Part shown: positions 33,603-37,163 of the stretch, piece by piece
Numbering within the stretch: the stretch's first letter is position 1
Layout of the letters: each line of letters starts with the position of its first letter
Assembly (NCBI GenBank): GCA_963769885.1
Contig: CAVYNH010000006.1
Location: 256,001-320,000 of the forward strand
From: Methanobacteriota archaeon
Lineage (GTDB): Archaea; Thermoplasmatota; E2; DHVEG-1
DNA: 64,000 bases
Reading direction: 5' to 3'
Notes under the pieces: generated by a model
What the model was told of the DNA's origin: nothing
The model's input: only the letters and a program-made list of their open reading frames with translations
The model's database searches: none
Program-made: the position numbers and the translations under genes

Positions 33603-33787
33603 CCGGATGCCTCCGTCGCCGCGCCCATCGGGCAGGTCTTCACACAGATATAGCAACTCGAACACTTCTCAGAGTCGACCGTAGCCTTCCCCGCGAACAT
33701 GGACATGGCGTCGCTTGGACAGACGGCGATGCAACCGCCGCAGGTCAGGCATTTCACGCGATTCACGGTCGCTTTAGGCTTTGCCAT
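33599..33787 (-). CDS. 2x[4Fe-4S] ferredoxin
   Basis: CLTCGGCIAVCP and CSSCYICVKTCP. Confidence 0.92.
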   Translation of the reverse strand: MAKPKATVNRVKCLTCGGCIAVCPSDAMSMFAGKATVDSEKCSSCYICVKTCPMGAATEASG

Positions 33788-34346
33788 AGGATTCACCCCG
33801 GACAATCCCCGATGCAATCAGATGGGCGAGACGGAGCGGCTCAGGGAGTACTCCCCGAATCGTGGCACGACTTATAATCCCTTGCGCCTCCTCAGGAGAA
33901 CAGCCGACGAACTTCGCATATAAGGGGTTATGCGCAGTCTTGAACTCATGCAGCGTCCCCTCTTTGTGCAGGGCGAGGCGGCGCTCCCAGTCCGGGAAAT
34001 GCTTGCGCAGTGCATGTTCGATTGCCTGAAGATCGGGTTTGTCTCTCGTTATGGTCAAGACAGGGATCTGGATCGCTTCATACAGCCGTTGGATGTCGAC
34101 GATGTTGAAACCGCCCAGGCAGATGCCGTCGAGCATCACCGCGCGCAACTGCTCCCGATGCCGGGTCGTCTGGACCATGGTGATGACGACGTCCGTGGCA
34201 TCGGTCCCATCGATGGTCACCTGGCTGCGGAGCACGGCCTCGAGGTACTCGCCGCCGCGCATGACCACGCCGACGACCATGGTGGAGGTGTCGGTGAAGG
34301 TGAACGGCGCGTCGTCGATACCCAGGATCCTGATCTGCTGTTTCAT
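33774..34346 (-). CDS. DUF99 family (endonuclease V-like) protein
   Basis: IRILGIDD, IDGTDAT, MLDGICLGGFN, LPEPLRLAHLIA. Confidence 0.88.
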   Translation of the reverse strand: MKQQIRILGIDDAPFTFTDTSTMVVGVVMRGGEYLEAVLRSQVTIDGTDATDVVITMVQTTRHREQLRAVMLDGICLGGFNIVDIQRLYEAIQIPVLTITRDKPDLQAIEHALRKHFPDWERRLALHKEGTLHEFKTAHNPLYAKFVGCSPEEAQGIISRATIRGVLPEPLRLAHLIASGIVRGESYGKA

Positions 34347-34452
34347 GCCTTGCCGGGGAACCACTCCAGAATCATAAGAATGTTTCGCATTCTCTACAAA
34401 GGGAAAAAGTTTTTTTTAAAGGGAACCTAGGGAAGTTTGATTTTTACGTCCA

Positions 34453-34476
34453 GGGGTTCAAATCCCTTCCCCTACA
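34453..34476 (+). repeat. tRNA-Leu-like 3'-end repeat, copy 1
   Basis: GGGGTTCAAATCCCTTCCCCTACA. Confidence 0.8.
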
Positions 34477-34659
34477 CATAATATTATATCAGGTGAAACA
34501 GAAGCATTGATATAGTTTCTAATACAGAATATTAATGGTTTTTTGTGGGAATATTAAAAGAACAAAAAAGAAAAAGATAAGGATTTTTTAGTTTCGTACA
34601 ATTTTAAAGAGAAAAATCTTATATAGATTTAAACAATAATAATTAATAGTGAATAGAAA

Positions 34660-34960
34660 ATGAATACAAAAAAGAGATTATTACTAATTGCAATATTACT
34701 CATTATCATCTCTTTAATAACGATGAGAATAATAATTACTGGTGAATAGAAACTGTATACAAAAAGGATTTTTTAATAATTGGAATAATACTCATTATCA
34801 TTTCTGCAATATCTTGCGTTTTTTGGATACCGCATTAGAGAGCAACAACTAATAATATTTTTGAGAGTGACATAACATATATTATTGGTACTTTAGGTGT
34901 AATTTTTTTACAGTAAGCCTTACTTTAAAGATGTTTATAAAGTACAAAGAAACCAACGGG
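34660..34960 (+). pseudogene. Degraded small membrane-protein gene (cassette 1)
   Basis: MNTKKRLLLIAILLIIIS...* followed by a near-duplicate hydrophobic segment with stops and frameshifts. Confidence 0.4.
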
Positions 34961-35000
34961 AGTAATTATTATCCTTCTGTTAGAATTTAACCGGTAATCT

Positions 35001-35024
35001 GGGGTTCAAATCCCTTCCCCTGCA
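35001..35024 (+). repeat. tRNA-Leu-like 3'-end repeat, copy 2
   Basis: GGGGTTCAAATCCCTTCCCCTGCA. Confidence 0.85.
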
Positions 35025-35099
35025 TAATTTTTATTTAAATTGATGAAAAATATAATTATATACTTTAAATTTCATTCTAATATGAAACATGGGGAAGTA

Positions 35100-36290
35100 A
35101 TGAATAAGAAATTATCTCAAATAATAGCACTTTTTCTCTGTAGTATTTTATTTGTTGTAACGTTTTCTGGTTGTATTGAAAAGAAGCAAAAACCAGAGGA
35201 ATATAAAGAAACATTACTACCAGAAGTTAAATTGGACCAACCTTCAATCTTACCAGATTGGAAGGATGGAGAATACCATGATTACTATGGCACAATGGAA
35301 ATGCTGAATGATTTTAATGGTAAATATCCTGATTTAGTAAATGTATTTTCTATTGGAAAAAGTGTTCTTGGAAAGGATATTTGGTGTATCAGGATAACCA
35401 ATGAGAAGAACAATACGATAAAGTCATCTTGTCTTATTGATGGTTGTATCCACGGACAGGAATGGGAAGGAGGCGAGGCGTGTTTGTATCTTGCTGAGTA
35501 TCTTCTTATTAACTTTGATGCCAATGAAACAATTACTCATATTCTCAATTCATCTGAAGTATATCTGATTCCTTTAGTAAATCCTGATGGCAGACAAGAT
35601 GATAACCTATATAATGACAATGGTATAAATTTGAATCGTAATTTTGATATTGATTTCGGTAGAATAAGAGGAGGTGTTATACCTTTAGGGAAGTTATTTG
35701 GTCGTATAAAAATCCCTCGTATCCCTATTAAAATTTCTCGAGAGTTTACACTCTTACATAAATTGTTTCCAAGTTTTCCATTATGGCTTACAAATTGTGG
35801 TCGCCATCCTTTTTCAGAACCTGAAACTCAAGCAATGAGAGATTTTATGAGAGAACTTGAGAATAATGATTTTTCTTTTTATGTAAATTGTCATACAGCC
35901 TGGCACAGTTTTGGGGGTCCTTGGGATGCTTTTAAACCTCCTTTTGAGAAATCAAAACAGGAACAATATATCTTTGATTATGTAACAGAATGGGTTGTTA
36001 AGAATACAGAATATGAAAAGTATAAAAATTTGTTGTCTTACTTAAGTGGTGAATCATCTGATTGGTGTTTCAAAGAATTTCGCATTCCATCATTTGGGTT
36101 TGAAATTCTATCACAGGATTATGACTGCTATACAGGTGGAGGGAAACATGACCATCTTGTTCATTGGATGGAAACTACCCTTCCGGTTTTCATGTATCTC
36201 CTTGTGAACATTGATAATCTGCGTGAATGGAGAACACCTGATATTCAACCATCTTTGCCTGAAGGTGTGCCACCAGAGCCTCTAAAGTAA
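35100..36290 (+). CDS. M14 zinc carboxypeptidase, lipoprotein-like (cassette 2)
   Basis: FSGC lipobox, IHGQE (HxxE), NPDG, NLNRNF, FSEPET, NCHT. Confidence 0.9.
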   Translation: MNKKLSQIIALFLCSILFVVTFSGCIEKKQKPEEYKETLLPEVKLDQPSILPDWKDGEYHDYYGTMEMLNDFNGKYPDLVNVFSIGKSVLGKDIWCIRITNEKNNTIKSSCLIDGCIHGQEWEGGEACLYLAEYLLINFDANETITHILNSSEVYLIPLVNPDGRQDDNLYNDNGINLNRNFDIDFGRIRGGVIPLGKLFGRIKIPRIPIKISREFTLLHKLFPSFPLWLTNCGRHPFSEPETQAMRDFMRELENNDFSFYVNCHTAWHSFGGPWDAFKPPFEKSKQEQYIFDYVTEWVVKNTEYEKYKNLLSYLSGESSDWCFKEFRIPSFGFEILSQDYDCYTGGGKHDHLVHWMETTLPVFMYLLVNIDNLREWRTPDIQPSLPEGVPPEPLK

Positions 36291-36345
36291 TCTTTTTTAT
36301 AAATTTATGTCAACAGGAGAAATCTATTAATTTTACAGGTATTTT

Positions 36346-36369
36346 GGTGTTCAAATCCCTTCCCCTGCA
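36346..36369 (+). repeat. tRNA-Leu-like 3'-end repeat, copy 3
   Basis: GGTGTTCAAATCCCTTCCCCTGCA. Confidence 0.85.
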
Positions 36370-36566
36370 CTTTTTTGTTAAAGTTTTCGCATAGTCAATA
36401 ATACATAGTTGTATAGGTTTTTAAAGGGTTTTTTAAAAAAAGAATCACCAGAGTAAAAACTTGTAAATTATATAATCCACAATAAACCATGGTTTATTTT
36501 TTTTAAAAAAGGCAATCGTCCGAAATAAAGAAATGATATTAAAAAAATCAAGAAAGAAAACAGAGA

Positions 36567-37163
36567 CTACTTCTTCTTCAGGACGGCCTGCCGACCCGCC
36601 TCGAATGCCCTTTTGTTGAATTCCTGATACTTCGTCGGTACATCATCAAGGATCGCCTGCAACAGGACCTCAGGGCTGAATGGCAGCACATCCACCGCGG
36701 ACAATGCCCCCAGGAGAACGATGTTTTTGGTGATGACCGCACCCGCCTGCCTGGCTAGCGCGATGGCATCCACAGGATAGACCTTCGCGAACGACGCGAG
36801 CTCCTTGAGAATGACCTCGAGCTTCGGATACGGCACGCCGCCGGTCGCGACCGTGAACGGGATCGTCGGGTTCGTATCGGTCACCAGCTTCGTCTTCGCA
36901 TGGACATATATCACGTTCCGGAGAGCCTCGACCGGCTCCGTACTCACGAGCGCATCCGCGGTGCCCATGGGGAGCATCGGGCTTTCGACCGCGCCCATGC
37001 GCACTGTGCAGACGACATCGCCACCGCGCTGCGCCATCCCATGGATTTCGGAGACATAAACAGGGACACCGGCCTTGACGGCCGCGTCGCCGAGCATCTT
37101 CGCTGCGGTGATTACGCCTTGGCCGCCGACGCCGGTGAGCACGATGCTGATCTTTCCCTTCAT
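36567..37163 (-). CDS. iorB: Indolepyruvate:ferredoxin oxidoreductase beta subunit
   Basis: GVGGQGVI, SEIHGMAQRGG, NIVLLGAL, NKRAFEAG. Confidence 0.93.
   Translation of the reverse strand: MKGKISIVLTGVGGQGVITAAKMLGDAAVKAGVPVYVSEIHGMAQRGGDVVCTVRMGAVESPMLPMGTADALVSTEPVEALRNVIYVHAKTKLVTDTNPTIPFTVATGGVPYPKLEVILKELASFAKVYPVDAIALARQAGAVITKNIVLLGALSAVDVLPFSPEVLLQAILDDVPTKYQEFNKRAFEAGRQAVLKKK

Follow-up and report, generated by a model that had tools for sequence, protein, structure and literature searches.

A 64-kb stretch of contig 6 (CAVYNH010000006.1, positions 256001-320000) in the metagenome-assembled genome (MAG) of a Methanobacteriota archaeon (2.09 Mb, 55% GC, seven contigs) carries an AT-rich block located between two host genes. 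The whole stretch is termed the window, and coordinates are counted from its first nucleotide. The block is probably an orphan array of two integrase-less gene cassettes from a pool common to one family of uncultured Thermoplasmata, in which cassettes move by site-specific recombination in the T-loop part of tRNA-Leu genes, a piece of one array having entered an intergenic spacer. Judged by sequence comparison, the cassettes form a real, mobile system, which would employ a recombinase and presumably circular intermediates. In the GC profile of the window, GC content is 0.21-0.37 at ~34360-36570 versus 0.56-0.65 in the flanks, and the edges of the island are sharp. The parts of the block are as follows.

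34393..36543, plus strand: inserted AT-rich block, a cassette array without a tRNA gene (break of homology to congener genome G001, and GC content)
34393..34452, plus strand: remnant before att copy 1, 60 bp, the last ~24 nt of which (34429-34452) are a cassette-side arm of a third type (sequence matches)
34453..34476, plus strand: att copy 1, tRNA-Leu T-loop to discriminator, A variant at the third-last base (pattern search)
34477..35000, plus strand: cassette A, decayed gene for a 72-77-aa protein with two transmembrane segments, arm 34955-35000 at its end (stop-ridden pieces of open reading frame)
35001..35024, plus strand: att copy 2 (pattern search)
35025..36345, plus strand: cassette B, with its own AT-rich upstream region, M14 gene and arm 36304-36345 (homology to a cassette on contig 7)
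35100..36290, plus strand: M14 zinc carboxypeptidase gene, predicted lipoprotein of 396 aa, intact, lipobox-like N-terminus (PF00246, E=5e-42)
36346..36369, plus strand: att copy 3 (pattern search)
36370..36543, plus strand: trailing remnant with a TATA-rich promoter-like element at 36430-36506 (conserved in another genus)

An earlier reading of this DNA, made from the sequence alone, had described three direct repeats at 34453, 35001 and 36346, with one co-oriented gene in each interval and neither tRNA nor integrase nearby. The pattern search bore this out: exactly three core matches exist in the window, all on the plus strand and 24 nt long, separated by 524 and 1321 bp, and none was obtained in 100 dinucleotide-preserving shuffles. 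The first interval holds the decayed membrane-protein gene and the second the intact M14 lipoprotein gene (PF00246). The core of the direct repeat comprises 21-24 nt and is identical to the T-loop plus the 3′ acceptor strand of tRNA-Leu. Copies 2 and 3 have a 48-nt stretch in common at 83% identity (repeat family D3), which includes the upstream arm of non-tRNA sequence already remarked on in that reading. ARAGORN detected no tRNA in the window, nor did Rfam at the gathering score, and Rfam gave no tRNA match over 34300-36700 even at E<=10; recombinase searches of the window were empty as well.

Each copy comes ~50-70 nt past a stop codon and precedes a T-run resembling the tRNA's own terminator. 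These positions would suit functional RNA 3′-end modules, serving in processing or termination and spread by gene duplication, rather than recombination sites. The fragment, however, is devoid of the 5′ acceptor strand and unable to take up a tRNA-like fold, homology between cassette copies stops exactly at the cores, and arrays are polarised behind tRNA-Leu genes. We therefore regard such RNA modules as a very improbable explanation of the repeats.

The extent of the mobile unit was indicated by cassette B. Aligned with a contig 7 cassette that follows tRNA-Leu(CAG), it is homologous over precisely the core-to-core interval (35002-36371, 85% identity), and the DNA outside the cores of these two M14 cassettes is unrelated; on this comparison, the cassette is evidently the unit of movement. 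The two M14 paralogues in this genome show 79% amino acid identity with a dN/dS of 0.33, and the carboxypeptidase is, by this estimate, under purifying selection. The window M14 protein is 79-82% identical to proteins of other MAGs, versus 79% to its own paralogue. In other MAGs the M14 gene is flanked by the same sites and lies behind tRNA-Leu UAA or CAA. Congener G001 gave no M14 match.

Cassette A contains an internal tandem duplication of 92/93 bp (34635-34811, 80-88% identity; families D1 and D4). Its gene is intact in four other family genomes (G008, G062, G103 and G118; 77-86% DNA identity), and its arm is 87-95% identical to arms of many genomes. The arm and core of copy 1 match sites in other genera at 84-92%, from about 34429-34434 on. 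As this arm is of the cassette type and common to other genera, the 60 bp before copy 1 would be the tail of a lost cassette. Beyond copy 3, five genomes of another genus share the element at 36430-36506 at 82-88% identity; in one of them it likewise lies ~200 bp past a last att copy. The element is possibly a promoter, or else a small RNA gene, travelling with cassettes. Such AT-rich elements (60-95 nt; also in loci L082-L086), in which a TATA-like core is strongly conserved, usually come after T-runs; in the window, a T-run directly follows the element.

The 18-mer of the core occurs 13 times in this genome at <=1 mismatch. Four of these occurrences are the 3′ ends of tRNA-Leu genes, namely CAA, GAG, CAG and an intron-bearing UAA gene (UAA read from sequence), and behind each of the four lies low-GC DNA closed by one or two partial core copies. 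Identity begins at the T-loop in every partial copy of this genome, and the sister loci (contigs 4, 6 and 7) have an intact tRNA accompanied by a displaced 3′ fragment. The cargo at the sister loci comprises a second M14 peptidase, two paralogous secreted proteins of unknown family, a TM1586-type nitroreductase, a PAS protein and a beta-helix protein. No recombinase was found among the cargo genes behind the four tRNA-Leu genes, and no leftover integration or transfer genes were seen in the window block or in the tRNA-Leu cassettes of this genome.

Given an extreme GC contrast within a metagenome-assembled genome, foreign low-GC reads could have been misjoined into the contig during assembly or binning. 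Both junctions, however, are internal to a 785-kb contig, the same sites are found in six or more additional low-GC islands of this genome, of which four adjoin its own GC-rich tRNA-Leu genes, and other MAGs show the same pattern. An assembly or binning artefact is hence hardly credible.

Outside this genome, sites consisting of arm plus core (one arm type) were detected in 22 of 61 family genomes (14 of 40 genera) and in 109 metagenome contigs; a search of viral contigs with the same pattern gave no match. Co-oriented sites were spaced at a median of 1104 bp (n=102, from 80 of the 109 metagenome contigs), with up to 6 sites per contig. The non-tRNA arms are 85-95% identical beside unrelated cargo in many genomes and keep a short hairpin or palindrome abutting the T-loop, with compensatory changes, in a sample biased by the search pattern. 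The arms were also aligned as candidate diverged tRNA-Leu bodies, from D-loop to variable arm, and the alignment was no better than shuffles. The cargo, mostly secreted or membrane proteins, is variable and differs between congeners as well as between related genomes. The Thermoplasmata MAGs that make up the related genomes derive mainly from sediments and lakes. Many of the relatives have 31-42% GC, matching the cassettes, which makes these low-GC relatives plausible donors. The block is thus not a peculiarity of one locus with fixed gene content: the repeats recur elsewhere with varying cargo, and integrase-less, mostly one-gene units bounded by core and arm stand behind tRNA-Leu CAA, GAG, CAG and UAA and in many relatives, in agreement with the cassette array first proposed.

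Deletion of serially integrated islands is the classical origin of cis-mobilisable elements (CIMEs), and the intervals could likewise be deletion remnants of large integrase-carrying islands or proviruses integrated one after another at tRNA-Leu. The units would then be immobile scars, and the orphan array a rearranged piece of such a scar. Cassette A is decayed, and accretion followed by decay is well documented (PMC5704250; PMC3146451; tycheposon preprint, bioRxiv 10.1101/2020.12.28.424599). In addition, the same 21-nt core forms the end of one viral contig that carries a terminase gene, and viruses using the tRNA-Leu core site probably exist; no relatives of this contig were found in the 108 family genomes searched. 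Random loss, however, would not yield ~1-kb units with one intact gene and a conserved arm in more than 100 contigs. Nor does this explanation fit the occurrence of the same core-bounded M14 unit behind different tRNA-Leu isoacceptors and at a non-tRNA site, or the difference in cargo between congeners. We consider an origin from deletion remnants to be improbable, and the movement of intact cassettes is favoured.

The insertion in the window was examined by comparison with relatives. Homology between the window and congener G001 breaks off at 34392 and restarts at 36571, and in G001 both flanking genes are 91 bp apart with no block between them. The flanking genes are also adjacent, by match coordinates, in genome G021 of another genus (g21). 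The features bordering the block are as follows.

33774..34346, minus strand: left flank, host Endo_dU (DUF99) gene, start 46 bp from the junction (PF01949, E=9e-65; 86% identity to G001)
36544..36570, plus strand: probable rest of the original intergenic spacer (16/20 nt equal to the first 20 nt of the G001 spacer)
36567..37160, minus strand: right flank, host gene for a 2-oxoacid:ferredoxin oxidoreductase gamma-type subunit (PF01558, E=1e-37; 83% identity to G001)

On this comparison the block is evidently an insertion, and the ancestral site a 91-bp spacer without a tRNA gene. Since the flanks are adjacent in both G001 and G021, the ancestral state would have been a short tRNA-less spacer, and deletion of a resident tRNA 5′ part is thereby excluded. 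The sequence-only reading had left two routes to a tRNA-less array, relocation of the block from a tRNA locus or loss of the 5′ part of a tRNA at this place. The former is upheld by the empty site in the congener and in another genus. The latter falls, given the ancestral spacer and the cassette-type arm of copy 1, which recurs at cassette sites elsewhere and is not the stump of a deleted tRNA-Leu; no tRNA 5′ part was found upstream of copy 1 by ARAGORN, Rfam or alignment of the arm to tRNA-Leu.

At the right end, 16 of 20 positions agree between the last 27 nt of the low-GC DNA and the 20 nt that come next in the G001 spacer, a score reached by 159 of 5000 shuffles and by no more than 6 of 1340 other AT-rich segments. 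These 27 nt, directly before 36571, are probably a leftover of the old spacer. The whole ~200 bp after copy 3 were also considered as old spacer and showed no significant overall similarity to it, which leaves these 27 nt alone as plausible. A target-site duplication of TTTCGCAT flanking the insert (repeat family D8) was rejected, because the conserved element 36430-36506, found in another genus, lies beyond the second copy and the DNA past that copy is therefore still foreign. A circle of three cassettes opened within the third was also considered, and no locus joining the trailing to the leading remnant was found.

A second tRNA-less low-GC island is located on contig 1 of this genome (~66200-68400, L013), with one Leu-type core of variant end. 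Its site is empty in three other genera, and the congener holds ~3 kb of different DNA there, with three secreted-protein genes and no recognisable cores. This orphan site is a generic hot spot and is not informative.

Exactly at the junction, the spacer of G001 has the sequence TTC-C-AAATC, oriented like the array; this is the T-loop heart of the core plus one extra base. From its frequency across this genome, a T-loop-like motif falls within 6 nt of a given point in ~7 of 10,000 cases (~7e-4). The segment 34393-36543 could accordingly have been inserted simply into a pseudo-att site, to which we assign somewhat less than an even chance; the alternative is illegitimate insertion of an array fragment.

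Several findings weigh against movement by a site-specific recombinase, at this junction or in general. The junctions are not clean hybrid att sites: by eye, no more than 9 of 13 positions on the left agree with the 3′ part of the core, and the right junction has neither arm nor core. The pseudo-att interpretation is post hoc. No recombinase could be tied to the core: the window contains no linked recombinase, and the eight tyrosine (PF00589) and one serine recombinase genes of this genome all lie elsewhere, several of them in elements at other tRNAs. Site-bearing metagenome contigs amounting to 449 kb contained four integrase-like open reading frames, none adjoining a core, and no integrase ending at or just past any core was found in the loci fetched, which hold ~230 distinct sites.

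Cassettes might instead move by general homologous recombination or gene conversion between the 21-45-nt repeats, by loop-out between direct repeats and Campbell-type re-entry at any copy and with no dedicated integrase, the orphan block having been joined as an array fragment by illegitimate end-joining. No linked recombinase turned up anywhere searched, the junctions lack clean hybrid att sites, and the ends of the block fall within cassette remnants, not at cores. Such recombination, however, leaves unexplained the 85-95% conservation of arms beside unrelated cargo in different genera, the sharp start of identity at the T-loop and the T-loop-like octamer at the empty site. The T-loop is the classical crossover place of tRNA-targeting integrases. 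Homologous recombination is, in our judgement, an unlikely account, and site-specific recombination in the T-loop core is preferred.

The sequence-only reading pictured an integrase acting in trans; a co-occurring tyrosine recombinase was sought, and none specific for tRNA-Leu was found. The integrase near tRNA-Leu(CAG) was rejected as a helper, as it belongs to a 12.8-kb element in tRNA-His. This element (contig 7, ~166566-179480) lies behind tRNA-His, with a 20-nt tRNA-end repeat at its bounds and the integrase beside the tRNA; a classical integrase-carrying island, it is placed back to back with the tRNA-Leu(CAG) cassette, which has no integrase. Also rejected were the tyrosine integrases of a widespread family (430-490 aa), whose targets were tRNA Glu, Arg, Gln, Ala, Val and Pro and never Leu in 30 loci. 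The reading frame of these integrases (L213-L242; in this genome contig 4, 132047-133541) enters the 3′ end of the target tRNA on the opposite strand, and the att core would therefore overlap the end of the integrase gene.

The sole recombinase seen beside a core was a 206-aa resolvase-type serine recombinase (L202, 6619-7239). Its gene borders a unit of 5 kb or more that includes DUF3800 and Stc1-domain genes, and 46 nt separate its end from a Leu-type core. As the enzyme of the system this recombinase was discarded, being confined to one metagenome contig, with an association with the site that did not recur. Two Xer-like recombinase genes are present in this genome, on contig 6 at 676965 and contig 4 at 124360 (326 and 331 aa), neither reaching the NCBIfam XerA cut-off; the congener shows one. 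In L076 (G008, ~335330-336325) and L099, an Xer-like or integrase-like gene lies directly upstream of a tRNA-Gly/tRNA-Leu(UAA) pair, and in this genome and another MAG an aminotransferase gene fills the position before this pair.

The cassettes were compared with known classes of elements. CIMEs of the ICESt1/ICESt3 family are att-bounded, with the 3′ end of the target gene in att, lack integration and transfer genes, occur in tandem and are thought to be moved by the integrase of another element; they have been described in bacteria as decayed integrative and conjugative or integrative and mobilisable elements of several kb (PMC5704250). The array resembles them in being bounded by att sites, in tandem and free of integration or transfer genes. 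It differs in its ~1-kb units, mostly with one intact gene, in the conserved arm and in the great number of units across an archaeal family; moreover, no helper element was found here, and the window array is not at a target gene.

The ssrA islands of Dehalococcoides have low GC and lie in tandem behind a tRNA-like gene; they are bounded by 20-bp 3′-end repeats, each directly preceded by a conserved motif foreign to the target, and insert in the T-loop (PMC3146451). Sixteen of them carry a serine-recombinase module overlapping attL, sizes range from several kb to tens of kb, and some islands without an integration module are proposed to be cis-mobilisable (PMC3146451). The likeness to our cassettes extends to the 3′-end repeats, the upstream motif, T-loop insertion, low GC, tandem arrangement and the occurrence of module-less units. 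In contrast to the Dehalococcoides islands, no serine-recombinase module overlapping attL was found here, several tRNA-Leu isoacceptors serve as targets, and an orphan array exists. In the tycheposon-seeded islands of Prochlorococcus, tRNA genes act as seeds, partial tRNA copies separate the elements and cargo builds up by the tRNA; an integrase and replication genes of their own are what defines tycheposons (bioRxiv 10.1101/2020.12.28.424599). Our cassettes carry neither a recombinase nor a replication module, and the likeness lies in tRNA genes as seeds, partial tRNA copies as separators and cargo gathered beside the tRNA. As for islands of the Islander type, the window contains no intact target tRNA gene and no integrase of the island's own.

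Integrons and clusters of attC sites lacking an integron integrase (CALINs), including archaeal ones, consist of short, mostly co-oriented one-gene cassettes; many arrays have no nearby integrase, and sites are most alike within a taxon (bioRxiv 10.1101/2022.02.06.479319). The tandem, mostly co-oriented short cassettes with one site between each are comparable. Unlike in integrons, however, the site is a tRNA-derived core with an arm, no IntI was found, and the cassettes carry their own AT-rich upstream regions. No recombinase of this genome reached the NCBIfam integron-integrase cut-off. Single-strand folding of both strands of the three sites gave z-scores of -0.74 to +1.40 versus shuffles, with no attC-like fold, and the separation from attC integrons made at the outset is thereby sustained. 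Full-text literature searches retrieved no description of such cassettes in these archaea. What appears new is the minimal size of one gene, the conserved arm, the family-wide abundance, the choice of several tRNA-Leu isoacceptors as targets and an array without a tRNA for which the empty site is still preserved.

From these comparisons the following course of events is proposed. A cassette comprises an upstream region of its own, as a rule a single gene, the conserved arm of non-tRNA sequence and the 21-24-nt core, and cassettes ordinarily stand in head-to-tail stacks behind tRNA-Leu genes. They would enter by site-specific recombination in the T-loop core, the recombinase likely being supplied in trans, and every insertion would remake the tRNA end and shift older cassettes outward. 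In the lineage of this genome, an array piece would have entered the 91-bp spacer between the two host genes at the T-loop-mimicking TTC-C-AAATC, delivering the secreted M14 carboxypeptidase and a membrane-protein gene that has since decayed. A bolder extension, which we hold as tentative and rather doubtful, is a dedicated integron-like system of gene capture whose site is the tRNA-Leu T-loop core plus arm and whose recombinase is host-encoded or rare. Orphan arrays would then be working tRNA-independent platforms, the counterpart of CALINs, seeded at pseudo-sites.

The cassettes raise the question of which enzyme moves hundreds of units that never encode one, and the orphan array, together with the empty site preserved in the congener, offers the best place to read the chemistry of insertion. 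Sediment archaea of this kind reportedly feed on detrital protein. If the proposal is true, a pool of ~1-kb, one-gene cassettes able to insert at any tRNA-Leu gene and, now and then, at other places would give them a simple means of exchanging surface and hydrolase genes, and this exchange would span genera 25 GC points apart.

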